NCBI GenBank assembly: GCA_963805625.1 | Contig: CAWDVE010000026.1 | Span: forward strand, 1 to 30,097 | Direction of reading: 5' to 3' | DNA from: an uncultured Candidatus Rokubacteria bacterium | GTDB lineage: Bacteria > Methylomirabilota > Methylomirabilia > Rokubacteriales > DASRDR01 | DNA length: 30,097 bases | In this document: piece after piece, positions 1 through 30,038 of the stretch | Layout of the letters: the number at the start of each line of letters is the position of its first letter | Position numbering within the stretch: position 1 is the stretch's first letter | Notes under the pieces: model-generated | Told to the model about the DNA's origin: nothing | Database searches by the model: none | What the model saw: the letters and a program-made list of their open reading frames with translations, nothing else | Program-made: the position numbers and the translations under genes

Positions 1-2
1 CT

Positions 3-125
3 GGGACCCAGACCCGCATCCAGGCGCTCGGCACGGGATTCGATGCATTCGTGACCAAGCCGGTTGACCCCGGCGAGCTGGCCGCCGTCGTGGCGAACCT
101 CGCGCATCGGAGCCAATCTGGGTGA
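3..125 (+). CDS. C-terminal end of a receiver (REC) domain protein, probably a hybrid kinase or response regulator; truncated by the window edge
   Basis: Frame from 3 reads GTQTRIQALGTGFDAFVTKPVDPGELAAVVANLAHRSQSG*, which carries the REC 'GFDxxxxKPVDP' end motif. Confidence 0.8.
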   Translation, partial: GTQTRIQALGTGFDAFVTKPVDPGELAAVVANLAHRSQSG

Positions 126-482
126 CATGGTCCCGTGCGACAAGTGAACCCGATGGAGCCGCCGGTCGAACCTGACGACGCCGGGGAGCGCCCGCCTTGT
201 TGGCCGTCGATGTCTCGGAGCAGTGCGAGGACCAGCTTCCTCGTCGTCTCGTTCAGGACCGAGCACGGGGTCGCCGTCGGTCCTGATGGTGCTCGCTTGA
301 CATTCACGCCCCGCGCCAGCGCCCCGTCACGGTAGCTTGCAGGCAGGACGAGATGGAGTAGCAGTGGACGGGTGGGACGATCGAAGCCTCAGAGCCCGAA
401 GCTCCGCGCTCGACTCGGGGGCCTCGTGCGTCCTGGCTCTGGTCGTCGGGCGCCGATGTTCTCTCCGATTGGAGGCCCCACA

Positions 483-965
483 ATGCTGAGAAAGCAGATC
501 ATTCCAAGGCATTCCAGCGCATCAGCATCCTTGGAAGGCGAAATCTCGGTTGCTGACGTCGCCACGGTGCAGGTGACAGCCGAACAGGCTGATCATCCCA
601 TCGACAATGCCTTCGATCACAATCGAGGACCTGGAGGCAGTCGCTGGATCGCCGACGGTCCCGGCAAGCAGACGCTGATCCTGCTCTTCGACAGCCCACA
701 GACGATCCGACAGATCGCCGTGGAGGTCGAGGAGCTTGATGTGAGCCGAACGCAAGAGTTGTCCGTGTCCGTCTCCTCGAATGGAGGGCAGACATATCGT
801 GAGCTCCTGCGGCAGGAGTTCACCTTTAGCCCGCCCGGCACGAGCTTTGAGCGGGAGCTCTGGTCCATCTTGGCGGAGGGAGTGACGCATCTGCGGCTGG
901 AGATCAAGCCCGACAAGGGAGGTCGCGTAGGGCGGGCAACCCTGACTTCCTTGGCCCTGGCCTGA
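483..965 (+). CDS. Galactose-binding/discoidin (F5/8 type C, APC10/DOC-like) fold carbohydrate-binding-like protein
   Basis: ATG 483 follows GGAGG; motifs 'HPIDNAFD...SRWIA', 'SVSSNGGQTY', 'THLRLEIKPD'; shorter than track ORF 372..965. Confidence 0.65.
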   Translation: MLRKQIIPRHSSASASLEGEISVADVATVQVTAEQADHPIDNAFDHNRGPGGSRWIADGPGKQTLILLFDSPQTIRQIAVEVEELDVSRTQELSVSVSSNGGQTYRELLRQEFTFSPPGTSFERELWSILAEGVTHLRLEIKPDKGGRVGRATLTSLALA

Positions 966-1015
966 AGCTCCCGTCTGCGTCCCGGGACTGTTATCGCTCC
1001 GGCTCTTCAGCCTTT

Positions 1016-1047
1016 CGTCGCAATGTCGCGCCGGCGACAACCTGACG
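1016..1047. promoter_or_regulatory. Putative sigma54-activator enhancer (UAS), core TGTCG-N6-CGACA at 1024-1039
   Basis: CGTCG caa TGTCG cgccgg CGACA acc TGACG; 82 nt upstream of the -24/-12 motif at 1122. Confidence 0.75.
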
Positions 1048-1121
1048 CGAGAATCTTGCGCTCCGCGCCGAAGAGTGGAACGTTCGGTCGGTCTTTCCGC
1101 CTCTCCGCGAGCGACGCCCGG

Positions 1122-1136
1122 CGGCATGGAACTTGC
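1122..1136 (+). promoter_or_regulatory. Sigma54 (-24/-12) promoter
   Basis: CGGCATGGAACTTGC = GG-N10-GC, matching consensus TGGCACG-N4-TTGC; precedes RBS and ATG 1174. Confidence 0.75.
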
Positions 1137-1173
1137 CCGTCATTCGTCTCAAGCACTGGCAAGGGAGGTTTCA

Positions 1174-1392
1174 ATGACGAAGACTGACATCGGATGGACG
1201 ACCCCACTCGCGGGCCTCGTGCTCGCCTCGACACTCCTCGCGGCGTGCGGCACGGTGGGTGGCGCCGCAGTGGGCGCGGGTTCCGGCGCGGCGATAGGAG
1301 CCGGGACCGGTTATGGCGCCGGCAAGGGCGCGCTCATCGGCACGGGCGTCGGCGCGGCCGCGGGGGCAATCTACGACATCATGAAGAAGTGA
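1174..1392 (+). CDS. Glycine-zipper small lipoprotein
   Basis: RBS AGGGAGG; lipobox LAAC; repeated GxxxG zipper GAAVGAGSGAAIGA...GTGVGAAAGAI. Confidence 0.85.
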   Translation: MTKTDIGWTTPLAGLVLASTLLAACGTVGGAAVGAGSGAAIGAGTGYGAGKGALIGTGVGAAAGAIYDIMKK

Positions 1393-1398
1393 GGGGGC

Positions 1399-1671
1399 GT
1401 GATGAAGATCTGGACACGGTTCAGCATGACCATCGCCGCCCCGATCCTGCTGTGGAGTGGGATGGCCCTCGGGCAGTCTGCGAACCCTCCGGCGCACCAG
1501 GGCGCGACCCCCCGGACGGTGGAGGGTCACATCGTCAAGATCGACCGGACCCAGGGACGGGTGACGATCCGAGCCGCCGACGGCACGATGCATGAGTTCC
1601 AGGCCTCGAAGGAGACCCTCCAGGATCTGAAGGAGGGCGATCCCATCGAGGCCCGGCTCCGCCAGCCGTAG
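1399..1671 (+). CDS. Small secreted OB-fold-like protein (DUF1344/CusF-like)
   Basis: Signal peptide; 'VEGHIVKID...VTI...LKEGDPIEA' pattern; start is GTG 1399 or ATG 1402. Confidence 0.7.
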   Translation: MMKIWTRFSMTIAAPILLWSGMALGQSANPPAHQGATPRTVEGHIVKIDRTQGRVTIRAADGTMHEFQASKETLQDLKEGDPIEARLRQP

Positions 1672-1695
1672 CGGCTGGCTGGACCCAGCCAGCCG
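1672..1695. terminator. GC-rich hairpin directly after the stop codon
   Basis: cggctggctgg-ac-ccagccagccg inverted repeat; no clear U-tract. Confidence 0.5.
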
Positions 1696-1784
1696 GTTGC
1701 CGGTCGACAGGCGCAGGCGATCGGGGGACGGGGCGCGGCCTTCGACACTTGAGAGCCACGCCCCGTCCTCCTGGGAAAATAGCA

Positions 1785-2396
1785 ATGTTCTCACTACTCA
1801 TCGATGGTTGGTTTCGGGAGCATCTCTATGCCGTCGTGTTCCTGGGCGCCATCGTCGGTGCGGTCGGGATCCCCTTTCCCGGTCGGCTCATGCTGATAGC
1901 GGTGGGATCCATCTCCAACCCCGTTTCGGGCACGGGCGCCAGCGCGTGGGTCCTGATCGGGCTTGCGACGCTCGGCACCGTGGCCGGCGACCACGCCTGG
2001 TACTTGGTCGGACGGCTGAAGGGTCGACGGCTGTTCGAGCTCTACTGTCGTGTCTTCCGTCTCACGACCTCGCGGATGGACGCGGCGGACCGCTTCCTGC
2101 GGCGCTTCGGCGGCGTGGCGTTGCTGTTCGCCAGAGTGGCCGTGACGCTTCGAGTGCTGGTGGCGCCGCTCGCACTATCGCGCGGCATGTCGTATGTGCG
2201 CTTCGTAGCGTTCGACCTCCTGGGCGCTCTCCTGTGGGTCACGGGGTTCGTGTGGCTCGGCCGGACTGTTGGGACCCTGACGTCAGGGAGTGAACTCGTC
2301 GGGACCCTCACGATTGTCGGCATTCTGGGGGCCGCCAGCGCCGTCATCAGCGTACTCGCCCGCCGCCGTTTCGCCGGCCGCGTCAGCGTGTCGTGA
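1785..2396 (+). CDS. DedA/VTT family membrane protein
   Basis: 'GIPFPG', 'GTVAGDHAWYLVGR', 'RFGGVALLFAR', 'MSYVRFVAFDLLGALLW'; ATG 1785. Confidence 0.85.
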   Translation: MFSLLIDGWFREHLYAVVFLGAIVGAVGIPFPGRLMLIAVGSISNPVSGTGASAWVLIGLATLGTVAGDHAWYLVGRLKGRRLFELYCRVFRLTTSRMDAADRFLRRFGGVALLFARVAVTLRVLVAPLALSRGMSYVRFVAFDLLGALLWVTGFVWLGRTVGTLTSGSELVGTLTIVGILGAASAVISVLARRRFAGRVSVS

Positions 2397-2668
2397 CCGC
2401 CACGGATCAATACCGAAGACTCGTTCCAATCGGCTGTGCCCCGTGGCCACTCTGAATGGGATTGTGAGCGCCGCCGCCCAGCGGAGGTGCCTCGGACACA
2501 CGAGTGAGGAGAGTGAAGAGAAAGGGACGGGAAGCGGGCCCGACCGCCCGCTCCCCGCAGTGTGGCTAGGAAATCTCCTTCATCGGCTGACCGCAGCAGT
2601 TGCCCGGTCTGTCCGACAGATGTCCGCACTTCTCACAGCGATATTGATGCGCCACGAGTTTCACCTCC

Positions 2669-2986
2669 TCAGTTGACCTGGATCGCGGTCACCATCTTCT
2701 GACCGCCCTTCTCCTCGATGCTCGCCTTCACCGTCGCGCCGGCCTTCAGCGCGGCAGGGTTGACGTTGACGGAACCCGGGATCATCAATCGGGTGCCGTC
2801 CTCGAGGAGAACCGTTGTGCCGGCCGGATCCACGCTCTTGATCTTCCCGCTGACCTCGGTCTTCGCGATCGGCGCGACCTTCGAGGCCGGCACCGGAGCC
2901 TGTCCGGTCTGAGCCCCGACGAGCGAAGCGAACACGAGCACGAACACGAGCCAGATGCCAATCGCCGCGACGAGGCTCTCCTTCAT
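2669..2986 (-). CDS. Secreted DUF1344-like OB-fold protein
   Basis: RBS GGAGGG; signal peptide; 'VSGKIKSVD...VLLEDGT...LKAGATVKASIEEKGGQKMVTAIQV'. Confidence 0.75.
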   Translation of the reverse strand: MKESLVAAIGIWLVFVLVFASLVGAQTGQAPVPASKVAPIAKTEVSGKIKSVDPAGTTVLLEDGTRLMIPGSVNVNPAALKAGATVKASIEEKGGQKMVTAIQVN

Positions 2987-3005
2987 GGCACGCCCTCCGC
3001 CGTCG

Positions 3006-3176
3006 TCAGACTGCGGGCGGCAATCGCCGCGTCCTGGCCATGTGGAGCACGAGCAGCACCACCCCCACCAGGAACAGCACCCACGCGATCTGTGAGGCCA
3101 CGGCCGCGACTCCGTAGAGCCCAAGGAGCCCGGCCACGAGTCCCACGATCAGGAACGTCAGCGCCAACGACATCAT
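3006..3176 (-). CDS. DUF1328 (UPF0391, YtjA-like) small membrane protein; absent from the ORF track
   Basis: MMSLALTFLIVGLVAGLLGLYGVAAVASQIAWVLFLVGVVLLVLHMARTRRLPPAV* (56 aa); RBS GGGAGGG. Confidence 0.85.
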   Translation of the reverse strand: MMSLALTFLIVGLVAGLLGLYGVAAVASQIAWVLFLVGVVLLVLHMARTRRLPPAV

Positions 3177-3221
3177 CGCCATTCCCTCCCTTTACCGGTC
3201 GGCACCAGTCGGTAGTCGCCC

Positions 3222-3250
3222 CGGGCGCCGCCCCGCAGGGCGGGCGTCCG
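3222..3250. terminator. Hairpin between the lipoprotein and DUF1328 genes
   Basis: cgggcgccgccc-cgca-gggcgggcgtccg imperfect inverted repeat. Confidence 0.35.
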
Positions 3251-3261
3251 ATCAGGCTCCG

Positions 3262-3456
3262 CTACTTCTTGAGCTCTTCCACCGCCTTGTCGATCCGTTC
3301 TCCGGCCTTCTCGACGGGCCCCTTGCCGCTCAGCCGGTCCAGGGCCCGGTCGATCTTCGAGCCCGCCTTCTGTGCCGGGCCCTGATCGCACCCCGTGAGC
3401 ACGGTGCCCATGAGCAATGCGATCCCGATCAGGCTTCCCATCTCAATTCGCCGCAT
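3262..3456 (-). CDS. Small lipoprotein with a duplicated GPxxKAGxxID motif
   Basis: RBS GGGGAGGG; lipobox LTGC; GPAQKAGSKIDRA / GPVEKAGERIDKA. Confidence 0.8.
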   Translation of the reverse strand: MRRIEMGSLIGIALLMGTVLTGCDQGPAQKAGSKIDRALDRLSGKGPVEKAGERIDKAVEELKK

Positions 3457-3491
3457 CGGTTCCCTCCCCGAGAACAGCGGTCGCGGCACGC

Positions 3492-3566
3492 CTACATCAC
3501 GCCCATGAGCCACAGGATGACGATCAGACTGAGCGGCACTCCCAGAAGCCATAGGATCAACGGCAT
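3492..3566 (-). CDS. 24-aa hydrophobic micro-protein
   Basis: MPLILWLLGVPLSLIVILWLMGVM*; RBS AGAGGGGGG; first gene after the sigma54 motif; paralog at 15954-16031. Confidence 0.7.
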   Translation of the reverse strand: MPLILWLLGVPLSLIVILWLMGVM

Positions 3567-3641
3567 TGCTGTCGCCCCCCTCTGCTGTTTTTCGTCGGTC
3601 GGCCACGAGCACTGGCGCGGCCCCTCTGTGTACTTGTCAGG

Positions 3642-3656
3642 GCAAGTCGCGTGCCG
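3642..3656 (-). promoter_or_regulatory. Sigma54 promoter
   Basis: Minus strand CGGCACGCGACTTGC. Confidence 0.8.
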
Positions 3657-3733
3657 AGCCAGTTCGCCACCGAGATCGGGCGTCCGGCGGCCGGAAACGG
3701 ACCGGATTCCAACGACCGGAGAGGACCACCCTC

Positions 3734-3765
3734 CGTCACGGTGTCGCCGCGGCGACACCGTGACG
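3734..3765. promoter_or_regulatory. UAS; perfect 32-bp palindrome (core 3742-3757)
   Basis: CGTCA cgg TGTCG ccgcgg CGACA ccg TGACG; 85 nt upstream of the promoter at 3642-3656. Confidence 0.8.
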
Positions 3766-3791
3766 AGTCGAGGGAATACCGTGACGGATGC

Positions 3792-4000
3792 TCAGGCTGC
3801 GGGCCGGACGGCGCGCTCTTCCTGGAGCCGGGTCTCGACGATGGACCAGTCGATGTTCCGGAAGAACGCCTCAATGTACTGGTCGCGCTCGGTCGCCTTG
3901 TAATCCCGCATGAAGGCGTGCTCCCAGACGTCCATGACCAGGAGTGGCTTGAACCCCGCGGGCACGCCGTCCTGGTGGCGCGTGATCCAGTGATTCGAGG
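3792..4000 (-). pseudogene. Fe/Mn superoxide dismutase C-terminal remnant
   Basis: SNHWITRHQDGVPAGFKPLLVMDVWEHAFMRDY...YIEAFFRNIDW carries the DVWEHA signature; no N-terminal half or start codon. Confidence 0.8.
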
Positions 4001-4026
4001 GTGATGACCGATGGAAGGGAACGGGA

Positions 4027-4064
4027 CAGGGCCCGGGACGCCTCGCGGCGTAGCCCGGGCCCTG
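4027..4064. terminator. Hairpin downstream of the PRC-BON gene
   Basis: cagggcccggg...cccgggccctg with an inner acgcc/ggcgt stem. Confidence 0.5.
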
Positions 4065-4099
4065 CCGGGACCGCGGGAGAGGCCTCGTGGCGCCGGGCT

Positions 4100-4804
4100 T
4101 TAGCCGCCCTGCACCTTGAGGTTGTTCACCACGCGGCGCACGCCGTCGACCTGCCGGGCGAGCTCCGTCGCGCGCTGTCGCGTCTTGTCGTTGTCGACGG
4201 TCCCGTTGAGCTGCACGATGCCGTTGGTCGTGTCGACGTCGACCTTCAGCAGCGTGACGGGCGAAGTCCCCGCGAGCTTCGTCTTCACCGCAGCGGTGAT
4301 GGACGCGTCGCTCCAGGCCTTGCGGACGTCGCGACCCCACTCCCGGTCATTGGGATCGGGGTACTTGTCCGCCGTGAAGCTCGGCGACCGCTCGAGGGTC
4401 TCCTTCTTCACGTCGACGTAGACGGTCCGCTTCTCGCGATCGACGATGACCGCGTCCCACGGCACCGCGAAGAGCTTGTCGCCGATGCCCATGAAGCCGC
4501 CGAACGAGACGACGGCGTATCCGACGTGGCCACGGTGGTCGAGGAGCAGATCCTCGATCTTCCCGGCATCCTTGCCAGTTAGGTCCTTGACGCCGCTTCC
4601 GACAACCGAGCTGGCGCGGTACAGCCCCGCGTGCTCGGCAAAGCGCTTCGTGTCATTGATCTGCTCGGCGTTCTTCGCGGGCTGTCCCGTGGCGGCGACC
4701 TTGGGCGCCGACTGCTTGGGCGACGACTGGGCATTGACGTGCGTCGCCCCGAACGTGCCCGCGAGGGCCACGGCACTGATGAAGGCACAGATTCGACTCT
4801 TCAT
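4100..4804 (-). CDS. Secreted PRC-barrel + BON domain protein (OsmY-like)
   Basis: Signal peptide; PRC 'GKIEDLLLD...YAVVSFGGFMGIGDKLFAVPW'; BON 'DASITAAVKTKL...VDVDTTNGIVQLNG...VDGVRRVVNNLKV'; RBS AGGAGG. Confidence 0.9.
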   Translation of the reverse strand: MKSRICAFISAVALAGTFGATHVNAQSSPKQSAPKVAATGQPAKNAEQINDTKRFAEHAGLYRASSVVGSGVKDLTGKDAGKIEDLLLDHRGHVGYAVVSFGGFMGIGDKLFAVPWDAVIVDREKRTVYVDVKKETLERSPSFTADKYPDPNDREWGRDVRKAWSDASITAAVKTKLAGTSPVTLLKVDVDTTNGIVQLNGTVDNDKTRQRATELARQVDGVRRVVNNLKVQGG

Positions 4805-4862
4805 GCTTCACCCTCCTGGGTGCTTCACGGTGTAGTTGCGTAAACTCTGCGAGTCAGAAGGA

Positions 4863-4877
4863 GCAATCAAGATGCCA
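4863..4877 (-). promoter_or_regulatory. Sigma54 promoter for the PRC-BON gene
   Basis: Minus strand TGGCATCTTGATTGC. Confidence 0.8.
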
Positions 4878-4986
4878 GTCGCTCATGTCTCCCGTTCGGC
4901 TGACCGCGTCGGTGCCGCGCCCACCATCACCGAGGGATGTGCGCCAAGCGCTCGGCACATCGCGGTGCGCCCATTCGCCGCCTGCG

Positions 4987-5018
4987 CGCCACGCTGTCGT
5001 GGCGACGACACCATGGCG
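4987..5018. promoter_or_regulatory. UAS shared by divergent sigma54 promoters (core 4995-5010)
   Basis: CGCCA cgc TGTCG tggcga CGACA cca TGGCG. Confidence 0.75.
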
Positions 5019-5117
5019 CCCCCTCGGTTCGGCATTGGCGCGACGCTCTAGAGCGCCGTCGACACAAATGCGGAAGAGTGTTTCGCGTGCCGGTCGTCTG
5101 ACCACGGTCCGGTGGTC

Positions 5118-5132
5118 TGGTACGGAAGTTGC
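5118..5132 (+). promoter_or_regulatory. Sigma54 promoter for the treZ operon
   Basis: TGGTACGGAAGTTGC. Confidence 0.7.
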
Positions 5133-5147
5133 CCTCAAGGACCATCC

Positions 5148-7028
5148 GTGCGAATCCGAAGCAGCTCGCCTCCGACATGGCGGCGTCTGCCGATTGGAGC
5201 AGAGCTCGCCCCTAAGGGAGGCGTGCACTTTCGCGTCTGGGCCCCAGGGGCCGCGCAGGTCGAGGTCGAGCTGGACGACCGGCGGGTTCGTCTCGACGCG
5301 GAGCCCCACGGGTACCACTCCGGCCTCGTTCCCGCAGTCGAAGCCGGCATGAGTTACGCGTACCGGCTAGACGGGGGCTCGGCCTGCCCCGATCCGGCGT
5401 CCCGGTTCCAGCCTGCCGGACCCCACGGGCCGTCCGAGGTCGTCGATGCGGCCGCCTTTTCCTGGACCGATGACCGGTGGCCGGGCGTCACCCGCGAGGG
5501 CCAGGTCCTGTACGAGATGCACATCGGGACATTCACGAGCGCCGGCACGTGGGACGCGGCCAGCCGCGAGCTACCGGAGCTGGCGCGGGCGGGCATCACG
5601 GTGGTGGAGGTACTGCCGGTCGCCGACTTCGTGGGCGACTTCGGTTGGGGCTACGACGGCGTCAACTTCTTCGCCCCGACGCGGCTCTACGGCCGGCCCG
5701 ACGACTTCCGCGCCTTCGTGGATCGGGCCCACGCGGCCGGTCTGGGCGTGATCCTGGATGTCGTGTACAACCACTTCGGCCCGGACGGCAACTACCTCGG
5801 CCAGTTCGCTCCCCACTATCTCAGCCCGCGTCACCGGACGGACTGGGGCACGGCGATCAACTTCGACGGAGGGGGCTCCGAACCGGTCCGCGAGTTCTTC
5901 GTCTCGAACGCCGGCTACTGGATCGACGAGTTTCACCTGGACGGGCTCCGGCTGGATGCCACGCAGGACATCCACGACGATTCCCCGGAGCACGTGTTGA
6001 CGGCGATCGCGCGCCGGGCGCGGGAGAGCGCCGGCCGCCGATCGGTGTTCCTCGTCGCCGAGAACGAGCCGCAGGACGTGAGGCTCGTCCGCGCGGTGGC
6101 GGCCGGTGGCCACGACCTCGACGCCCTGTGGAACGACGACTTCCACCACTCCGCCACCGTCGCCCTCACCGGGCGGGCGGAGGCGTACTTCAGCGACCAC
6201 GCCGGGACGCCTCAGGAGCTGATCTCGGCCGTCAAGCGGGGGTATCTCTACCAGGGCCAGCGATACGCATGGCAGGGGAAGCCGCGTGGCACACCCGCGT
6301 GGGACGTGGGGCCGACGTCCTTCATCAACTTCCTCCAGAACCACGACCAGGTCGCCAACTCGCAGGCAGGGCTCCGCTGCCATCGGCTAACCAGCCCCGG
6401 CCGATACCGCGCCATGACCGCGCTGCTCTTGCTGGGCCCGGCGACCCCGATGCTGTTCCAGGGTCAGGAGTTCGCCGCCTCGAGCCCCTTCCTCTACTTC
6501 GCCGATCTCCCGCCCGAGCTGGCAAAGGTGGCGCGGGTGGGCCGCGCGGAGTTCCTGGCCCAGTTTCCGAGCCTGGCCGGGGCCGAGGCGCAGGCAGCGC
6601 TACCAGACCCGGCCGATCGCCTCACCTTCGAGCGCTCGAAGCTCGACCTCGGCGAGCGCGAGCGGAACGGCGCAGCCTATGCTCTCCACGTCGACCTCCT
6701 CCGATTGCGGCGGGAGGACCCGGTGTTCCGCACACAGGGCAGCGGCGGCGTGGACGGCGCCGTCCTCGGACCCGAGGCGCTCGTCCTCCGGTTCTTCGGT
6801 GTGGGCCTCGATCCCGACGATCGGCTGCTCTGCCTCAACCTGGGTCGCGATCTCGCCCTCCCGGCGGTCGCCGAGCCCCTGCTCGCGCCGCCCGAGGGCA
6901 TGCGCTGGAGCCTCCTCTGGTCCAGCGAGGCCATCCGCTACGGCGGCGCCGGCACGCCCGAGGCCGATCCCGCCGACAGCTGGGTCCTGCCGGGCCACAC
7001 CGCTCTCGTCTTCGGCTCCTCGCGATGA
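5148..7028 (+). CDS. treZ: Malto-oligosyltrehalose trehalohydrolase (GH13)
   Basis: 'FRVWAP', 'DPASRFQPAGPHGPS', 'YEMHIGTFT', 'WGYDGV', 'DVVYNHFGPDGNY', 'DGLRLDA', 'QNHDQVAN', 'PMLFQGQE'; start uncertain, GTG 5148 preferred because 5112 lies upstream of the promoter. Confidence 0.92.
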   Translation: MRIRSSSPPTWRRLPIGAELAPKGGVHFRVWAPGAAQVEVELDDRRVRLDAEPHGYHSGLVPAVEAGMSYAYRLDGGSACPDPASRFQPAGPHGPSEVVDAAAFSWTDDRWPGVTREGQVLYEMHIGTFTSAGTWDAASRELPELARAGITVVEVLPVADFVGDFGWGYDGVNFFAPTRLYGRPDDFRAFVDRAHAAGLGVILDVVYNHFGPDGNYLGQFAPHYLSPRHRTDWGTAINFDGGGSEPVREFFVSNAGYWIDEFHLDGLRLDATQDIHDDSPEHVLTAIARRARESAGRRSVFLVAENEPQDVRLVRAVAAGGHDLDALWNDDFHHSATVALTGRAEAYFSDHAGTPQELISAVKRGYLYQGQRYAWQGKPRGTPAWDVGPTSFINFLQNHDQVANSQAGLRCHRLTSPGRYRAMTALLLLGPATPMLFQGQEFAASSPFLYFADLPPELAKVARVGRAEFLAQFPSLAGAEAQAALPDPADRLTFERSKLDLGERERNGAAYALHVDLLRLRREDPVFRTQGSGGVDGAVLGPEALVLRFFGVGLDPDDRLLCLNLGRDLALPAVAEPLLAPPEGMRWSLLWSSEAIRYGGAGTPEADPADSWVLPGHTALVFGSSR

Positions 7029-9961: not shown

Positions 9962-11268
9962 CAGGCTCCGGCTCGGTGACGCCCCCCGGTTTCCTCCCGG
10001 TAACCGGCGAGCCCCTGCTGATCATCGACAACGACGAGGGTCTCCTGGAGCTCCTGTCCTTCGTCTTCAGGAGCCGCGGCTTCACGGTCCTCACCGCCCA
10101 GCAGGGCACCGAGGGGATCGCGCTCGCGCAAGCCCACCGCCCCGGGGTCATCATCTGCGACATCATCATGGACGACATACACGGCTTCGAGGTGCTCCGG
10201 AGCCTGCGCGCGGATCCGAAGCTGACCGACACGGTCGTGGTCATGATCTCGGCAAAGTCGTACAAGCCCGACATCGACCGCGCGAGGGAGATGGGCGCCG
10301 ACGACTACGTGGTGAAGCCCTTCCACCCCGATGAGCTCGTGTCCCGCGTGGAGCGCCTGCGGGCCGACCGGGCCACCCCGCGGCTCACCGCGAGGTTCTG
10401 GGGCACCCGCGGATCGATCGCGGCCCCCGGACCCTCTACGACGCTCTACGGCGGCAACACGGCGTGCGTCGAGCTCCGGTCCGGACAGAACATTCTGATC
10501 TTCGACGCCGGGACCGGGATTCGCGAGCTGGGCCTCGCCCTCGCCCAGGAGTTCCGAGGGCGAGCTCTCACGATCCACCTGTTCATCAGCCACACACACT
10601 GGGACCACATCCAGGGCTTCCCGTTCTTTGTGCCTGCCTACTCACCCGGCACGACGCTCCACATCTACGGCTCAACCGGCCGGGGCCAGTCGCTAAAGGG
10701 GGTCCTCAGCGGTCAGATGCAGTCTGACTATTTCCCCGTCTCGCTCGGCGATCTGATCTCGTCGATTCACGTTCACGAGTACCGCGGCGAGCCCTTCCGG
10801 ATCGGTGACACCACCGTCTCGGCAACATACCTGAACCACCCGGGCATGGCCCTCGGCTTCCGCGTGGAGCGCGCCGGCAAGTCCGTCGTGTACGCGACCG
10901 ACCACGAGCCGTACCGGACGACCCTCGAAGTGGGCAGCCGCGAGGCCGAGGCCGGCAAGCAGTTCGGCCGAGTGCTCGACGACGCCTTCGTCGGCTTCGT
11001 GAAGGGCACCGACCTCTACATCGCGGAAGCCCAGTACACCGACCTCGAGTATCCCTCCAAGGTCGGCTGGGGCCACTCGTCCCTCAGCGCCACCGTCGAG
11101 GTCGCCCTCCAGGGGGGCGTCAAGGCCCTCGCCCTCTTCCACCACGATCCCATGCATTCCGACGACGTGGTGACGGGCATGGAAGTCCTGGCAAAGGAAC
11201 TCATCGCCGAGCGTGGCGTCTCCCTCTCGTGCTTCGCTGCTCGCGAGGGGCAGACGGTGGAGGTCTGA
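9958..11268 (+). CDS. Response regulator receiver fused to an MBL-fold metallohydrolase (phosphodiesterase-like)
   Basis: REC 'LIIDND..ICDIIM..MISA..GADDYVVKPF'; MBL 'FWGTRGSI..YGGNTAC..FDAGTG..SHTHWDHIQG..LNHPG..TDHE..WGHS..FHHDP'; start approximate. Confidence 0.88.
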   Translation: MTGSGSVTPPGFLPVTGEPLLIIDNDEGLLELLSFVFRSRGFTVLTAQQGTEGIALAQAHRPGVIICDIIMDDIHGFEVLRSLRADPKLTDTVVVMISAKSYKPDIDRAREMGADDYVVKPFHPDELVSRVERLRADRATPRLTARFWGTRGSIAAPGPSTTLYGGNTACVELRSGQNILIFDAGTGIRELGLALAQEFRGRALTIHLFISHTHWDHIQGFPFFVPAYSPGTTLHIYGSTGRGQSLKGVLSGQMQSDYFPVSLGDLISSIHVHEYRGEPFRIGDTTVSATYLNHPGMALGFRVERAGKSVVYATDHEPYRTTLEVGSREAEAGKQFGRVLDDAFVGFVKGTDLYIAEAQYTDLEYPSKVGWGHSSLSATVEVALQGGVKALALFHHDPMHSDDVVTGMEVLAKELIAERGVSLSCFAAREGQTVEV

Positions 11269-11725: not shown

Positions 11726-11767
11726 GGTCTGTACCGCCTGTCTCTGGGAGCCGTCTTACCGCGAGTC

Positions 11768-11782
11768 ACACGCTTCATGCCG
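11768..11782 (-). promoter_or_regulatory. Variant sigma54 promoter (GG-N10-GT)
   Basis: Minus strand CGGCATGAAGCGTGT; the -12 element is imperfect but the UAS lies 92 nt upstream. Confidence 0.5.
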
Positions 11783-11874
11783 AGTCTCCCCGCGGCGAAG
11801 GAACGGGAATTCGTCCGGAAACAGGTTCGAATCGGCGGAGCGCCGCACCTCGCGCGCTCAGTGACGACTACGCG

Positions 11875-11898
11875 TGTCGCCACCGCGACAGGGTGTCG
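11875..11898. promoter_or_regulatory. UAS (core 11875-11890)
   Basis: TGTCG ccaccg CGACA ggg TGTCG. Confidence 0.7.
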
Positions 11899-16031: not shown

Positions 16032-16072
16032 TCCGAACACCTCCTCTCGCGATGTGGTGCTGATGCACACAG

Positions 16073-16087
16073 GCAATCTCTGTGCCG
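16073..16087 (-). promoter_or_regulatory. Sigma54 promoter for the micro-protein / PBP / phosphatase operon
   Basis: Minus strand CGGCACAGAGATTGC. Confidence 0.8.
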
Positions 16088-16161: not shown

Positions 16162-16193
16162 CGCCATGGTGTCGCCGCCGCGACACCAGGACG
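16162..16193. promoter_or_regulatory. UAS between divergent promoters (core 16170-16185)
   Basis: CGCCA tgg TGTCG ccgccg CGACA cca GGACG. Confidence 0.75.
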
Positions 16194-18526: not shown

Positions 18527-18558
18527 GGCCACGATGTCGCGCCAGTGACACCCTGGCG
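18527..18558. promoter_or_regulatory. UAS with one core mismatch (core 18535-18550)
   Basis: GGCCA cga TGTCG cgccag TGACA ccc TGGCG. Confidence 0.65.
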
Positions 18559-18672: not shown

Positions 18673-18687
18673 GGGCAGCCAAGTTGC
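18673..18687 (+). promoter_or_regulatory. Sigma54 promoter for csbD / BON / DUF3309
   Basis: GGGCAGCCAAGTTGC. Confidence 0.7.
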
Positions 18688-18765
18688 TATCCCCATTCCC
18701 AGCAGAATCGCGACGCGCGGATCGCCTGCGCGCCGCGGAGACTTCAAGAGAGGGAGGAAACACGA

Positions 18766-20063: not shown

Positions 20064-20135
20064 TGTTTTTCCTCCTTGCGGGGATGCTGACGTCAGCGGC
20101 TCCTCCCCGAACGTCGCCGCCGTCGGTCGATGAGT

Positions 20136-20150
20136 GCAAGCCATGTGCCT
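20136..20150 (-). promoter_or_regulatory. Sigma54 promoter
   Basis: Minus strand AGGCACATGGCTTGC. Confidence 0.8.
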
Positions 20151-20225: not shown

Positions 20226-20257
20226 CGTCATGCTGTCGGGCTCACGACATGGTGACA
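20226..20257. promoter_or_regulatory. UAS between divergent promoters (core 20234-20249)
   Basis: CGTCA tgc TGTCG ggctca CGACA tgg TGACA. Confidence 0.78.
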
Positions 20258-20321: not shown

Positions 20322-20336
20322 TGGCACACGGCTTGC
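20322..20336 (+). promoter_or_regulatory. Sigma54 promoter
   Basis: TGGCACACGGCTTGC, near consensus. Confidence 0.85.
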
Positions 20337-20380
20337 GTAACGTCCGTGTCGACGAAGCAATCTCGGACCAGGAGGACACC

Positions 20381-22163: not shown

Positions 22164-22612
22164 ATGGGTGGACGGTGGAGAAGCACGGCCCGCCGGGGTG
22201 GACGTGGACAGCCGGGTTCGGACGGCGGCGGTGGAAGTGGTTCGTCATCCCCGTCGCGGTGATCGCCATCACGCTGGCGGCGCTCGATCGCCTCCTCGAC
22301 GAGCCGCTGCGGCACCAGATGGAGCACCGACTGAACGATCGGCTGCGCGGATACGCCGTTACCCTCCGCGGGCTCGATTTCCACGTCATCGGCGGCTCGG
22401 GAAGCTCTACGAGGGTCTGGTCGGCGGCGTGGCGAAGCTCCTCGAGAAACACGCCCCGCGAGGAGGTCGCCACGAAGACCTCGGTCAGCGGCCGCATCGA
22501 GAACCCGCAGACCAACACCGCAGAGACCATCGTCCGCCTGATTCAGAACGCGTTCTTCCAGGCCATCCTCCGGGGTTTCGATCGAGAGCTCGACCGCATC
22601 CGCCGCGCCTGA
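22164..22612 (+). pseudogene. DUF748-like protein gene with a large internal deletion
   Basis: N-terminal TM + 'DEPLRHQMEHRLNDRLRGY..LDFH' joined to a C-terminal part 'KLYEGLVGGVAKLLE' (other frame) then 'NTPREEVATK..SGRIENPQ..IQNAFFQAIL'. Confidence 0.65.
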
Positions 22613-22626
22613 CCCGATCCTGCCCG

Positions 22627-22658
22627 CGTCAGGCTGTCGAACGGACGACAAGGTGTCG
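22627..22658. promoter_or_regulatory. UAS (core 22635-22650)
   Basis: CGTCA ggc TGTCG aacgga CGACA agg TGTCG. Confidence 0.78.
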
Positions 22659-22736: not shown

Positions 22737-22751
22737 GGGCACAGAGCTTGC
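22737..22751 (+). promoter_or_regulatory. Sigma54 promoter
   Basis: GGGCACAGAGCTTGC; 86 nt downstream of the UAS. Confidence 0.78.
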
Positions 22752-22808
22752 TGACTCCAGAGTGTCCACGACGAACGTGTTGGTCCCCCAACGAAAGGAG
22801 ACACCACG

Positions 22809-25778: not shown

Positions 25779-26192
25779 TCAGCTCGCTCGGGGCTCGTCT
25801 CCTGACCGCGAGACGAGGCCATCGATGGCATCGCGGAGCTGCCCGAGTTTGAAGGGTTTCTCGAGATAGCTGGCCGCGCCGAGCCGCAGCGCGCTCGCCG
25901 CGACCTGACCGCCGCCGAACGCGGTCACGAGCACCACGGGCACCTGCGGAAACTCGCGATGCAGCACCGGCAGGAGGTCGAGACCAGTGAGCCCAGGCAT
26001 CTCCTTGTCCAGGATGATCAGATCGAACGGCGCCCCGCGGAGCGTCTCCACCACGCGCGTGCCACGATCCCGCTCCGTCACCTGGAATCCGTCGGCTTCG
26101 AGCGTTCTGCGCAGGAGAGCCCGCATCTCGTCGTCGTCATCGACGACGAGCACCCGCGCGGTCGGCCCCGGACGGTCGTCGGCCTCACGCAC
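25779..26192 (-). CDS. Single-domain response regulator (REC)
   Basis: VLVVDDD, ILDKEMPG, VTAFG, YLEKPF; GTG 26192 follows GGGAGG (alternative ATG 26228). Confidence 0.9.
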   Translation of the reverse strand: MREADDRPGPTARVLVVDDDDEMRALLRRTLEADGFQVTERDRGTRVVETLRGAPFDLIILDKEMPGLTGLDLLPVLHREFPQVPVVLVTAFGGGQVAASALRLGAASYLEKPFKLGQLRDAIDGLVSRSGDEPRAS

Positions 26193-26241
26193 GACTACCT
26201 CCCTTCTGCCGAACCAGGAGACTCCCATGCCACTGAATGTA

Positions 26242-26256
26242 GCAAAGCGCGTGCCA
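26242..26256 (-). promoter_or_regulatory. Sigma54 promoter (consensus) for REC / NTase / phosphoesterase
   Basis: Minus strand TGGCACGCGCTTTGC, just after the activator stop codon. Confidence 0.8.
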
Positions 26257-26258
26257 GA

Positions 26259-27626
26259 TCATGACGACTGCTGGTCCGTGAACCCTGGGCCCACGCGCAT
26301 CATGTTGGCCTGCATCCGCTGAAGTGTCCGTACGCTGATCCCGAGGATACGGGCCGCGGCCCGCTTGTCGCCTCGGACCTCGTCGAGGACGCGGCGGATG
26401 TACTGGCTCTCCACCTCGGCCAGGGATGGGCGCACCCCCAGCTCGCCGGTCGAGCCGGGGGTGAACTCGATCCGGAGGTCGTCCCGCGTGATGTGCCGGC
26501 CCTTGGCGAGGGTCGCCGCCCGCTCGACGACGTTCTCCAACTCGCGGACGTTCCCCGGCCAGTTGTGCTCGAGGAGCCACTTGAGTGCCTCCTCGTCAAA
26601 GCCTTCGATCTCCTTGCCCATCCCGGCCGCCGCCCGCTTCAGGAAGTGCTCGGCGAGAAGCGGGATGTCCTCCGGCCGTTCCTTGAGGCTGGGGATCCGG
26701 ATGGGGATGACGGCCAGACGGTAGTAGAGGTCCTCCCGGAACTTCCCCTGCCGCACGAAGGCCGGCAGATCCCGGTTGGTCGCGCTGATGAGACGCAGAT
26801 CCACCTTGATCTCCTCGTTGCCGCCCACAGGCCGGACGACGCGGTCCTGGAGGGCACGGAGCAGTTTGACCTGCAGTGACTGGGGCATCTCGGCGATCTC
26901 ATCGAGAAGGAGGGTGCCACCCTGGGCCTCAACGAAGAGGCCCCGCCGCTTCCGGTCAGCGCCGGTGAAGGCTCCCCTCTCGTGGCCAAACAGCTCGGAT
27001 TCCAGCAGGGTCTCAGGAATGGCCGCACAGTTGACGGCGACGAACCGACCCTCGCGCCGGCCGCTGTGCCAGTGGATCGCCCGCGACACGAGCTCCTTGC
27101 CCGAGCCGCTGTCGCCCAGGAGCAGGACCGGAGCATCGGTGTCCGCCACCACCCGGATCTGCTCGAACACGGCCTCCATCGCCTTCGACCGGCCGAGGAT
27201 ATTGTCGAAGCTGTAGCGGCGCTCGACCTCGGCCCGGAGCCGACGGTTTTCCTCCCGGATCTGCTGGTCCTCCACGGCCCGCTTGACGACCAGCGACAGC
27301 TCCGGAAGCTTGAAGGGCTTGGTCAGGTAGTCGTACGCGCCCTGACGCATGGCATCGATCGCGCTCTCGAGGCTCCCGAACGCGGTCATGAGGATCACGC
27401 GCGCCCGTGGCTGGACGCGCTGGGCCTCTCGAAGCACGGCCAGGCCGTCCACCGGCTCCATGACGAGGTCAGTCAGGACGACCGCGTACTCCTCGCGCCC
27501 GAGCGCGGTCTGGGCGTCCTCCCCTCCCGTCACGGCCGTCACCGCCCAGCCTTCCACCTCCAGATGACGCCTGAGAAGCGCCACCATATCGGGATCGTTG
27601 TCCACCACGAGGATTCGGGGCTTCAT
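26259..27626 (-). CDS. Sigma54-dependent response regulator (NtrC/AtoC/ZraR family: REC-AAA+-Fis HTH)
   Basis: GDSGSGKE, ESELFGH, GAFTGA, LLLDEI, FREDLYYRL, WPGNVRELEN, HTH 'AARILGISVRTLQR'. Confidence 0.95.
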   Translation of the reverse strand: MKPRILVVDNDPDMVALLRRHLEVEGWAVTAVTGGEDAQTALGREEYAVVLTDLVMEPVDGLAVLREAQRVQPRARVILMTAFGSLESAIDAMRQGAYDYLTKPFKLPELSLVVKRAVEDQQIREENRRLRAEVERRYSFDNILGRSKAMEAVFEQIRVVADTDAPVLLLGDSGSGKELVSRAIHWHSGRREGRFVAVNCAAIPETLLESELFGHERGAFTGADRKRRGLFVEAQGGTLLLDEIAEMPQSLQVKLLRALQDRVVRPVGGNEEIKVDLRLISATNRDLPAFVRQGKFREDLYYRLAVIPIRIPSLKERPEDIPLLAEHFLKRAAAGMGKEIEGFDEEALKWLLEHNWPGNVRELENVVERAATLAKGRHITRDDLRIEFTPGSTGELGVRPSLAEVESQYIRRVLDEVRGDKRAAARILGISVRTLQRMQANMMRVGPGFTDQQSS

Positions 27627-29101
27627 GACTGCTCCTTCCTGTCTTCAGGCCCGGCCTCTGGAAGCCAGACGGTGAAGGTGGTGCCCTCGCCGGGCGTGCT
27701 CGCCACGTGGATCTCGCTTCCATTTGACCTCACGAGGTCCCGACAGATGGCGAGGCCGAGACCGGCCCCTTCGCGAGCGGGCTTGGTGCTGAAGAAGGGA
27801 TCGAAGATCCGGGGTAGGACGTTCTCCGGGATCCCTGCGCCCGTGTCCCGCACCGTGATGACAACGCCGGGCCGACCTTCGTCGGCCCGGCGGGCACCCT
27901 TGACCTCGACCCGCCCCCCCGCCGGAGTCGCTTCGATGGCGTTCGTCAGGAGGTTGATCAGGACCTGCTGGAGGTGCCCGGGGTCGACGCACACCTGCGG
28001 AAGGGCCGGCGGGATCGAGACCGCGAGGGTCACGCCGCGACCCTTGGCGAAGTGCTGGAGAAGCGGCCGCAGCGCGTCCGTGACCGACGCGGGCGCGACA
28101 GCCGCTCGCTCGGGCTCTCGCTGGCGGAAGGGATCCAGGGCCGCACGGATCATCCGGGAGATCCGGTCGATCTGGGTGATGATGACGTTGAGGTCTTCGC
28201 GGAGCGGCGAGTCCGTTGGCAGCGCGCGGAGTGTCAGCTCGGCGCGCCCGGCGATGATGTTGAGCGGCGTCCCCACCTCGTGGGCCATGCTCGAGCAGAG
28301 CTTGCCGGCGATCGCGAGCGACTCGGTCTGTCGTAGCCGGCGCATGAGCTCGAGCGACCGGTCCGTCTCGGTCTCCGCCCGCCCGCGAGCGTCCTCCAGC
28401 CGTTCTGTCATCCGGTTGAAGGCCGCCGCCACCTTCCCCAGCTCGTCGCGGCTCCGGACCGGGACGGGCGCGCGGGACTCGCCGGCCGCGACACGCTCGA
28501 TGCCCTGCATCAGGTCGGCGACCGGCCGGAACACGAGGCGCTGCAGGGCCACCCAGACAACGAGGCCCAGCAAGAGGACGAGGACACCGCCCCGCAGCGC
28601 GATCTTGTAGCTCTCGCCCAGAAGTTCGGCCTCCAGGCGGCCCGCGATGAAGGCGATCTCGAGCACCCCTTCGTCGTTCCCGGAGGACCGGACCGGGAGC
28701 AGCATCGTGTGGAGCCGGATGCCGCCACTCTGGTGCTCCACGACCGCAGGCTGGCCCGTGTCCCGGACCTGGCGATGTCGATCGAGGGGCACGCCGGGGT
28801 CGCCGGTGAGAAGGTTCGCGTCGACGCGTGGCGAAAGGCTCCGGTCGAGCAATCGGATCCGGACGATCTCGGTTTGCTTTACGACCAGATCACGGGCCAG
28901 ACGCTCCACGTCGACCGGCGTGCCGCTGCGAAGCGCGTTCTCCACCGCGAGTCGGATCGCCGCGCTCGTGACGCTCACGCGCAGGTCGAACTCCGCCCGC
29001 CGCTGGGCGCGCTCATCCTGGACTAGAACGTATGCGAAGAGGGCGACGACCAGCACCATCGGCACGAGGAGGAGTAGGAACAGGCGAAGTCTCAGCCCCA
29101 C
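27623..29101 (-). CDS. Membrane sensor histidine kinase (2 TM, extracytoplasmic sensor, HAMP, HisKA, HATPase)
   Basis: HAMP 'RDELGKVAAAFNRM'; H-box AHEVGTPLN; N-box QVLINLLTNA; DTGAG, FDPFFSTK, GAGLGL; ATGA overlap with the regulator. Confidence 0.95.
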   Translation of the reverse strand: MGLRLRLFLLLLVPMVLVVALFAYVLVQDERAQRRAEFDLRVSVTSAAIRLAVENALRSGTPVDVERLARDLVVKQTEIVRIRLLDRSLSPRVDANLLTGDPGVPLDRHRQVRDTGQPAVVEHQSGGIRLHTMLLPVRSSGNDEGVLEIAFIAGRLEAELLGESYKIALRGGVLVLLLGLVVWVALQRLVFRPVADLMQGIERVAAGESRAPVPVRSRDELGKVAAAFNRMTERLEDARGRAETETDRSLELMRRLRQTESLAIAGKLCSSMAHEVGTPLNIIAGRAELTLRALPTDSPLREDLNVIITQIDRISRMIRAALDPFRQREPERAAVAPASVTDALRPLLQHFAKGRGVTLAVSIPPALPQVCVDPGHLQQVLINLLTNAIEATPAGGRVEVKGARRADEGRPGVVITVRDTGAGIPENVLPRIFDPFFSTKPAREGAGLGLAICRDLVRSNGSEIHVASTPGEGTTFTVWLPEAGPEDRKEQS

Positions 29102-29121
29102 GGGGGCCTCAGTTTAGCACG

Positions 29122-29164
29122 CGTCCGACGCGCGACAGCCCGGCGTGCGGGCGACAGGGTGGCG
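29122..29164. promoter_or_regulatory. Degenerate tandem UAS between the kinase gene and the divergent sigma54 promoter
   Basis: CGTCC gacgcg CGACA gcc CGGCG tgcggg CGACA ggg TGGCG; 82 nt from the promoter at 29239. Confidence 0.55.
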
Positions 29165-29238: not shown

Positions 29239-29253
29239 TGGCACGTGCCTTGC
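29239..29253 (+). promoter_or_regulatory. Sigma54 promoter (consensus)
   Basis: TGGCACGTGCCTTGC. Confidence 0.85.
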
Positions 29254-29417
29254 TCCGCTCGCCCACTCAGAAGGTGCGGATCGATCCAGTGCCAGGGAGA
29301 ACGAAGCGCATGAACCGCAGCATCGCCTGTAGCGGGGAAGAGGGCGGCGAACGTTGACGACGCAGCCAGCCTCGCTCGTTCGATCGACCGAACGCGCGAG
29401 TACGGACGGAGCAGAAT

Positions 29418-30006: not shown

Positions 30007-30038
30007 CGTCAGGATGTCGCCCACGCGACATGATGTCG
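30007..30038. promoter_or_regulatory. UAS (core 30015-30030); target promoter predicted beyond the window end
   Basis: CGTCA gga TGTCG cccacg CGACA tga TGTCG. Confidence 0.72.

Follow-up and report, generated by a model that had tools for sequence, protein, structure and literature searches.

A lineage-specific paired palindrome in Candidatus Rokubacteria as a predicted sigma-54 enhancer: likely binder and predicted stress regulon

Introduction

What is the role of a palindrome that returns again and again between the genes of a single contig? The window analysed here, 30,097 nucleotides long, is contig C26 of a 7.27-Mb genome (69% GC) of an uncultured Candidatus Rokubacteria bacterium. A first-pass annotation, made from its letters, had picked out a recurrent TGTCG-N6-CGACA core, likened it to the upstream activator sequences of NifA, and proposed that flanking half-sites seat adjacent dimers of an enhancer-binding protein. 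The mechanism of sigma-54 enhancers is textbook knowledge; the locus raises the questions of whether the motif is real, whether it is such an enhancer, which protein would bind it and in which register, and what it would control. The features to which we refer are as follows (+, forward strand; -, reverse strand; enhancer copies, so called by prediction, carry no strand).

1016-1047: enhancer copy of two 13-bp palindromes, serving the sigma-54 motif at 1122 and a glycine-zipper lipoprotein gene
1122-1137 (+): sigma-54 -24/-12 motif
3641-3656 (-): sigma-54 -24/-12 motif, preceding three small genes including DUF1328 and DUF1344
3734-3765: enhancer copy, perfect 32-bp palindrome
4862-4877 (-): sigma-54 motif, preceding a PRC-barrel/BON gene
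4987-5018: enhancer copy common to two divergent sigma-54 motifs
5118-5133 (+): sigma-54 motif, preceding treZ-like, debranching-enzyme and DUF4383 genes
11867-11898: enhancer copy, one outer half-site decayed
16072-16087 (-): sigma-54 motif
16162-16193: enhancer copy between a small membrane-protein gene and an AI-2E transporter gene
18527-18558: enhancer copy with a one-mismatch core, preceding csbD, BON and DUF3309 genes
18673-18688 (+): variant sigma-54 motif, under the matrix cut-off, kept in 5 of 5 aligned genomes
20135-20150 (-): sigma-54 motif
20226-20257: enhancer copy common to two divergent sigma-54 motifs
20322-20337 (+): sigma-54 motif, preceding a gene run including holin-X-like and DksA/TraR genes
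22627-22658: enhancer copy
22737-22752 (+): sigma-54 motif, preceding small genes and a PCC-domain gene
25779-26192 (-): single-domain receiver protein; in other families, its homologues recur most often among the predicted targets
26241-26256 (-): sigma-54 motif, 3 nt past the activator stop, kept in 10 of 10 aligned genomes
26259-27626 (-): likely cognate activator with receiver, AAA+ and Fis-type HTH domains, recognition helix RTLQR
27623-29101 (-): partner sensor kinase (membrane helix, periplasmic domain, membrane helix, HAMP, HisKA, HATPase)
29111-29119 (-): conserved extended -10-like element of the kinase-activator operon, an outer half-site lying at its -35 position
29133-29164: degenerate enhancer copy, flanked by the kinase gene and a divergent sigma-54 motif
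29239-29254 (+): sigma-54 motif, preceding a WXXGXW-repeat lipoprotein gene
30007-30038: enhancer copy; the contig ends before its sigma-54 motif, which the C17 version of the stretch has at a distance of 119 bp

Results

The repeated unit is a pair of palindromes

The eight exact cores reported earlier are all in place (1024, 3742, 4995, 11875, 16170, 20234, 22635 and 30015), the stretch 3734-3765 is indeed a perfect 32-bp palindrome, a one-mismatch core is present at 18535, and the degenerate copy at 29141 has the score of a full site. Another one-mismatch core had escaped the annotation, at 7940; it lies inside the debranching-enzyme gene and has no full-site score. The low chance expectation, formerly a hand estimate, holds as well: in 100 shuffles of the window the core occurred 0.04 times on average, and none reached eight. 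All 10 window copies are intergenic, as had been claimed, by our own gene calls; these rest on a hexamer model of our own, so that gene boundaries are approximate.

Genome-wide, the 16-bp core has 24 copies against about 11 expected, while other spacer lengths yield up to 28 and 20, and 17 of the 24 fall in the window and one stretch of contig C17. The core was thus ruled out as the unit, being no more enriched than other spacers, and the signal resides in the 32-bp form. This form consists of two 13-bp palindromes, CG(A/T/C)CA-N3-TG(T/A/G)CG, placed 19 bp apart, and a matrix trained on 16 island sites gives the consensus CG(A/T/C)CA-N3-TGTCG-N6-CGACA-N3-TG(T/A/G)CG. Over 154 non-redundant sites from the genome and its relatives, information is confined to the four half-sites, the 30 bp of flank on each side carrying none, which argues that the site is two 13-bp palindromes; the G-x-C bases of each half-site are present in 307-308 of 308 oriented copies. 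Dyad symmetry of this kind, with conserved half-sites and free spacers, is that of a sigma-54 upstream activator sequence.

The spacing is equally strict. When exact palindromes are searched for a near-exact partner 8 to 60 bp away, 30 are paired at 19 bp and no more than three at any other distance, and a period of 19 returns 34 intergenic matches where each of 30 other periods returns 0-5. Decoy periods divisible by 3 do yield 16-27 matches scoring above 17, but only 1-5 of them intergenic, because codon periodicity supplies a coding background. At the same threshold (score >17) the matrix finds 50 matches in the genome, 10 in the window and 40 elsewhere; 47 of these 50 are intergenic in a genome that is 17% non-coding, as are 23 of the 24 outside the training island. 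The motif is real.

A strain-variant duplicate of the window

The window is a strain-variant duplicate of C17:643124-674294 of the same genome, 87-99% identical (99% at the ends, 87-92% across much of the middle), and its copies and those of C17 are therefore not independent. Between the two, the seven cleanly aligned enhancer pairs differ at 2 of 140 half-site and 8 of 84 spacer positions, two of the nine pairs (18535 and 20234) having been dropped as out of register. The gene content differs too. Frameshifts split many genes of the C17 island copy, among them the treZ-like, debranching-enzyme and AI-2E genes, and most of the PBP1b-like gene region is absent there, assembly error and decay not being distinguished. 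In the window, an Fe/Mn superoxide-dismutase-like gene is reduced to its C-terminal 57 aa (3792-3965, -), its C17 counterpart (666994-667641) having 215 aa, and 22175-22612 is an apparent deletion remnant of a 539-aa membrane-anchored gene that is intact in C17 (650936-652555) and whose C25 relative carries DUF748. A further window gene, 9976-11268 (+), fuses a receiver domain to a metallo-beta-lactamase-fold domain; it is kept in the relatives' island and has no enhancer copy immediately upstream.

Contigs from four mapped RNA runs cover csbD, BON and their neighbours and leave out the enhancer bins, where the gaps are explained by the divergence of intergenic sequence; they carry no information on start, strand or level, and play no part in the argument. 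All 10 RNA runs contained less than 0.2 of the sequence words.

Linkage to sigma-54 promoters

With a sigma-54 matrix built without use of the enhancer motif, 28 of the 50 matches were found 40-170 bp from a sigma-54 match, against 273 of 12,755 control positions (2.1%); outside the training island, 9 of 24 sites have a promoter match. The other 22 of the 50, among them the copies ahead of the rsbR-S-T-X operon and the gas-vesicle cluster, have none at the cut-off used. Some of the 22 are accounted for by the variant csbD promoter, the contig end beyond 30015 and a gap near 11875, a group to which the rsbR-S-T-X and gas-vesicle copies do not belong. This gap, of about 24 bp at window positions 11750-11800, falls where two relatives have a sigma-54 motif, and the region around enhancer 11867 is possibly a promoter undergoing loss.

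The linkage also appears when starting from the promoters. Among 20 relative loci and the C17 island, 48 of 70 strict sigma-54 motifs have a site (at most three mismatches in 20) within 200 bp, against none in 350 shuffles. As to helical phasing, 33 of the 48 distances fall at 78-84 or 89-95 bp and none at 85-88, in a set where many promoters are orthologues and thus non-independent. In a nine-genome alignment, the four half-sites and the -24/-12 element make up nearly all invariant intergenic columns, and alignments of other copies look much alike. Of the genome's strict intergenic sigma-54 motifs, 21 in 96 have an enhancer site. One copy, at G000:C19:36398 (L185), lies downstream of its promoter, between the sigma-54 motif (36529) and the gene.

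An IHF site between enhancer and promoter is common, and not required, at sigma-54 enhancers. None of the 50 sites has an IHF consensus nearby; the genome has three HU/IHF-family genes. The annotation's reading of the element as an upstream activator sequence of a sigma-54 enhancer-binding protein is borne out by its intergenic position, its enhancer distance, its co-conservation with -24/-12 elements and its linkage to an activator, and we predict with high confidence that it acts as a sigma-54 enhancer.

A candidate activator and its partner kinase

The activator gene 26259-27626 encodes a protein with intact Walker A, GAFTGA and Walker B motifs; together with the sigma-54 encoded in the genome, it provides the GAFTGA- and HTH-bearing candidate that goes with a sigma-54 enhancer. 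It passes no named NCBIfam cut-off (AtoC, 455 of the 714 bits needed; NtrC, 427 of 559; ZraR, 403 of 760; GlrR, 402 of 763) and is the only one among 39 AAA+ matches in the genome with RTLQR in its sequence. Its orthologues carry the recognition helix S(V/I/M)RTLQR. The periplasmic domain of the partner kinase looks sCache-like (Atlas score 0.97, a lead only).

The motif also attends the genes of this pair themselves. In other families it lies within tens of bases of the activator or kinase gene, and where the island is reduced it immediately precedes the kinase gene or follows the activator gene, and a sigma-54 motif comes some 100 bp later (L010, L012, L013, L014); no site showed in two of the seven reduced-island loci (L015, L016), whose sequences both stop at or within the activator gene. 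In the genus studied here, about 30 bp separate a weak copy from the kinase start, and the conserved extended -10-like element comes after that copy; from this layout the copy (29133-29164), placed over a sigma-70-type promoter of the kinase operon, is likely autoregulatory. No enhancer can be recognised upstream of the receiver-gene promoter (26241-26256) in this genus; that gene is served by its own enhancer copy in other families. Taking adjacency and distribution together, we consider it very likely that the window activator is the cognate binder.

Distribution of motif and activator

A search of 185,579 species genomes gave 113 stretches with the exact 32-bp pattern, 57 of them labelled Candidatus Rokubacteria or Methylomirabilota, 26 Pandoraea, 6 'uncultured bacterium' and 24 scattered over others; in the Rokubacteria-labelled records the window activator is found at up to 98% identity. 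Co-occurrence was assessed in 161 genomes of the phylum, with the motif at up to two mismatches and the last 77 residues of the activator as HTH query, at an orthologue cut-off (E <= 1.3e-11) that was chosen after viewing the matches. Within the order, 43 of 47 genomes with an HTH orthologue have the motif, against 8 of 67 without, kin not being independent. In the 11 genera that are mixed for the gene, the figures are 20 of 22 with and 6 of 30 without (p 6.5e-5, within-genus permutation). Four genomes of the order have the HTH and no motif, and eight the motif and no HTH match, the three of these with at least two copies being 74-85% complete. The 47 genomes outside the order were excluded from the count; six of them give weak HTH matches (E about 1e-9) and two have one motif copy. 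The co-occurrence is partly physical linkage, and another protein of the same cassette could still be the binder. Seven of eight sampled genus members have 19-33 copies each, and one fragmented genome has one; in other families there are 1-7 per genome.

Some occurrences fall in other settings. In Rhodoferax and Comamonadaceae (L063, L064, L088) the pattern has a cyclic-nucleotide-binding-like regulator gene on one side and a fatty-acid-ligase/ABC-transporter operon on the other, as named from our reading of the sequences without a family search, and is probably another regulator's site. In a record labelled Candidatus Eisenbacteria (L089:4550-5032; L171), the gene of a large kinase-TPR-GAF-AAA+-HTH activator with the helix RRQIQR is itself preceded by the same palindrome, and a tandem pair lies a further 450 bp away, a possible independent case of the same code.

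Predicted targets

Among the window targets, Pfam identifies CsbD, two BON, PRC-barrel, DUF1328, DUF3309, DUF4383 and glycine-zipper lipoprotein products, and further treZ-like, debranching-enzyme, holin-X-like, DksA/TraR and PCC proteins. Beside the other sites, for which 74 proteins were scanned, are genes for a YegS-like kinase, M48 peptidase, CBS proteins, nucleotidyl transferase, LigD, topoisomerase IB, BrkB/YihY, a cardiolipin-synthase-like PLD-family enzyme, a GH15 trehalase-like and an alpha-amylase-family enzyme, as well as gas-vesicle genes, an RsbR-S-T-X-kinase operon and a gene that we read as ferritin-like, with no Pfam match. The gas-vesicle cluster (G000:C17:624749-633488, L002) comprises two GvpA-like and three GvpL/F proteins, GvpG, GvpK, an ArsA-type ATPase, a kinase and a receiver, and lies downstream of an enhancer copy without a clear sigma-54 motif. 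At G000:C16:357446-364400 (L008), a strong enhancer copy lies upstream of an RsbR-RsbS-RsbT-RsbX-type stressosome operon with two hybrid kinases. Predicted targets in other families, with 18 of 36 predicted genes scanned, include single receiver proteins, treZ-like proteins, trehalose phosphatase, MscS channels and peptide-binding proteins.

General stress regulons under SigB, RpoS or EcfG typically contain CsbD, BON, trehalose and glycogen enzymes, LigD, superoxide dismutases, cardiolipin-synthase-like PLD enzymes and YihY/BrkB. The predicted target set shares such typical members; as the difference, control would here run via sigma-54 and a kinase-activator pair. Neither RpoS (best 298 bits against a cut-off of 379) nor SigB/F/G (best 133 against 234) was found in the genome; there are 10 shorter sigma-70-family matches. 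The predicted output is a general or osmotic stress gene set, judged against this list of typical genes. That the kinase senses envelope or osmotic stress is a guess drawn from the targets.

A RegA-like recognition helix

The RegA-family proteins compared here carry HRRTLQR, and the PrrA of PDB entry 1UMQ carries RRTLQR; of the former, that of L167 passes the ActR/PrrA/RegA cut-off, and that of L166 has this family as its best match, below the cut-off. The activator HTH is 30-38% identical to RegA HTH domains. In the portion of PMC5506826 consulted, the RegR consensus is given as GNGRCRTTNNGNCGC and the sites of the RegA family are stressed to be degenerate. As there given, it fixes the same G-x-C...G-x-C bases as each of our palindromes and is loose at the same middle bases; each palindrome fits GNGRCR-N4-GNCGC at the fixed G/C positions and leaves the TT centre unmatched. 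With RegA, PrrA, RegR and ActR the system would thus share both the helix core RTLQR and the pattern of fixed and loose bases, a likeness of sequence only and, for the box, one to the consensus of that portion. Since the helix matches RegA/PrrA and each palindrome fits the RegR box, two whole dimers likely bind.

Pandoraea, where a RegA-like protein is present, has the palindrome 13 times against 4 for a reversed control, including before the kinase gene that adjoins the RegA-like gene, before cydA, and once in tandem at the 19-bp period followed by TTGACA. The last arrangement, conserved tandem RegA-type boxes at this period and then TTGACA, recurs at L031:4990-5040 and 25 other Pandoraea loci, 26 in all; its target at L031 may be a small protein or an RNA, because there is no long ORF within about 900 bp.

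Discussion

Proposed mechanism and alternatives

What, then, would the element do? Its sequence, spacing and position, its co-conservation with -24/-12 elements, and its co-occurrence and linkage with the activator are observed. We judge it probable that the 32-bp pair of palindromes is an enhancer for two dimers of the activator 26259-27626, upstream of sigma-54 promoters and switched by the kinase. On general knowledge of enhancer-binding proteins, the membrane kinase would phosphorylate the receiver domain of the activator, two DNA-bound dimers would seed the AAA+ ring, the DNA would loop over about 50-140 bp between enhancer and promoter, and the GAFTGA loop would open the sigma-54 promoter complex. 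Through its RegA-type RTLQR helix, each HTH likely recognises a G-x-C half-site, and the weak copy over the sigma-70-type promoter of the kinase operon would likely provide autoregulation.

The register of binding could be a different one, with the same activator placing one dimer on the central core and two more dimers each on one outer half-site, so that three dimers build the ring. Such an arrangement goes with the annotation's two further claims, of a NifA-type shape and of flanking half-sites that seat adjacent dimers. The shape is there: in the parts of PMC7294313 and PMC4999443 consulted, the NifA upstream activator sequence is TGT-N10-ACA, and the central 16 bp fit it. The inner half-sites are also stricter at the middle base (T in 282 of 308, against A/T/C in 153/111/44 for the outer ones), which keeps a central dimer open, and several copies keep the core and lose one outer half-site (11875; C15:27621). 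A Xanthobacter locus (L101:4990-5080) has the 32-bp pattern, with a sigma-54-like motif, between a nifA-like gene and a suf-like operon, and is probably a NifA site that fits by chance. The NifA reading itself is unsupported: no gene in the genome reaches the NifA cut-off (best 403 bits against 529; the activator scores 361), there is no nif or fix target among the 37 window and 74 other proteins scanned, NifA was accordingly rejected as the binder, and the helix is RegA-like where a NifA-like protein in the same alignment lacks RTLQR. Nor do the flanks behave as seats for neighbours. Mismatches per half-site in promoter-anchored copies are, in order, 0.27, 0.46, 0.27 and 0.21, so that the outer half-sites are kept as well as the inner, and a partner half-site beyond the 32 bp is found in 17 of 308 cases against a background of 15-32; two whole dimers are therefore likelier than a central dimer with half-bound neighbours. 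We regard the three-dimer register as unlikely, and predict with good confidence that two complete dimers bind the 32-bp unit; our judgements on enhancer role, binder and register depend in part on one another.

The binder might instead be another protein, be it a different sigma-54 activator, a RegA-type regulator or an island-borne repressor, with the kinase-activator pair merely among its targets. The genome encodes more than 30 sigma-54-type AAA+ proteins, linkage and co-occurrence are no proof of binding, and there are the 22 sites without a clear sigma-54 motif. Against this, the motif tracks the HTH of the window activator within mixed genera and directly adjoins the activator gene where the island is reduced. 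No RegA/PrrA orthologue was found in the genome, where the best score is 86.7 bits and the cut-off 250, and the one small receiver-HTH protein, at C10:1362277, was rejected as the binder, having a different helix and no site within 15 kb; a foreign binder thus appears improbable. That the element is a REP-like repeat, an RNA hairpin or a terminator unrelated to promoters is scarcely credible. The perfect palindrome at 3734-3765 does lie just past a stop codon, and the arm spacers are slightly complementary (1.15 of 3 bases against 1.02 +/- 0.06), but the spacers vary without kept base-pairing (central halves, 1.06 against 0.99 +/- 0.06), and for this lack of covariation the idea is largely refuted. 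There is no Rfam match in the window and no terminator call at the three copies within 1-6000, and the copies are single, upstream of genes, and at kept distances to -24/-12 motifs. The activator-bound enhancer is thus the reading that we carry forward.

Relation to known systems

In the sources as far as consulted, tandem-site enhancers of the NtrC family likewise have a kinase with a receiver-AAA+-Fis-HTH activator, paired palindromic sites and a site at their own operon, and the AnfA promoter has two sites (PMC7294313). NifA sites are alike in the central 16 bp and, by the same excerpts, in lying within about 150 bp of -24/-12 motifs; they differ in that the unit here has 32 bp and four half-sites, and no nif target. 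From RegA, a receiver-HTH protein, the system differs in carrying the RTLQR helix on a receiver-AAA+-HTH sigma-54 activator, in a kinase with a periplasmic sensor and HAMP, and in predicted targets that are stress genes where those of RegA are respiratory. The RegR box, as given in the portion consulted, has an AT-rich centre, whereas the motif here has a GC-rich one and is nearly always tandem.

Within the sources consulted in part, the published system that comes closest, as a large stress regulon controlled by a sigma-54 activator, is that of Nla28 in Myxococcus xanthus, which by the section consulted binds an 8-bp direct repeat CT(C/G)CG(C/G)AG at variable spacing in mostly intragenic promoters (PMC9765219), unlike the rigid intergenic double palindrome found here. 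In the tables consulted of a Desulfovibrio survey, 37 activators mostly control few operons, the largest list having 13 (PMC4641369); the predicted regulon in this genus (19-33 sites) exceeds it, in a comparison that does not extend to motif logos. A literature search outside subscription papers, supplements, figure logos and RegPrecise returned no description of the motif, of a general stress regulon under sigma-54 or of sigma-54 in Rokubacteria. The class of mechanism is known; what appears to be undescribed is the motif, the wiring of the regulon and the RegA-like code. Our verdict is that the element is very probably an enhancer specific to this lineage, that its cognate activator is likely the one in the window and its stress regulon a predicted one, and that the system is neither a NifA site nor a RegA regulon.

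Implications

For the organism, we put forward a wider scenario tentatively, doubt slightly outweighing belief: Rokubacteria may run a general (osmotic or desiccation) stress response via sigma-54, with the kinase-activator pair replacing RpoS/SigB and using the helix-box code of RegA/PrrA, and the regulon would have grown from a small core of receiver protein, trehalose enzymes and MscS to some 20-35 promoters in one genus, partly in a 70-kb island. The analysis yields a concrete, testable assignment of regulator, site and regulon in an uncultured lineage, and the motif tags small genes without known function as likely stress genes. If confirmed, a gene set of the general-stress type would be wired to sigma-54 instead of a stress sigma factor, and one helix-DNA recognition code would be common to RegA-type and NtrC-type regulators. 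RTLQR-type helices would then read CGACA-N3-TGTCG pairs at a 19-bp period on sigma-70 and sigma-54 regulators alike, a rule that, if true, could assign sites to unstudied activators in other phyla.
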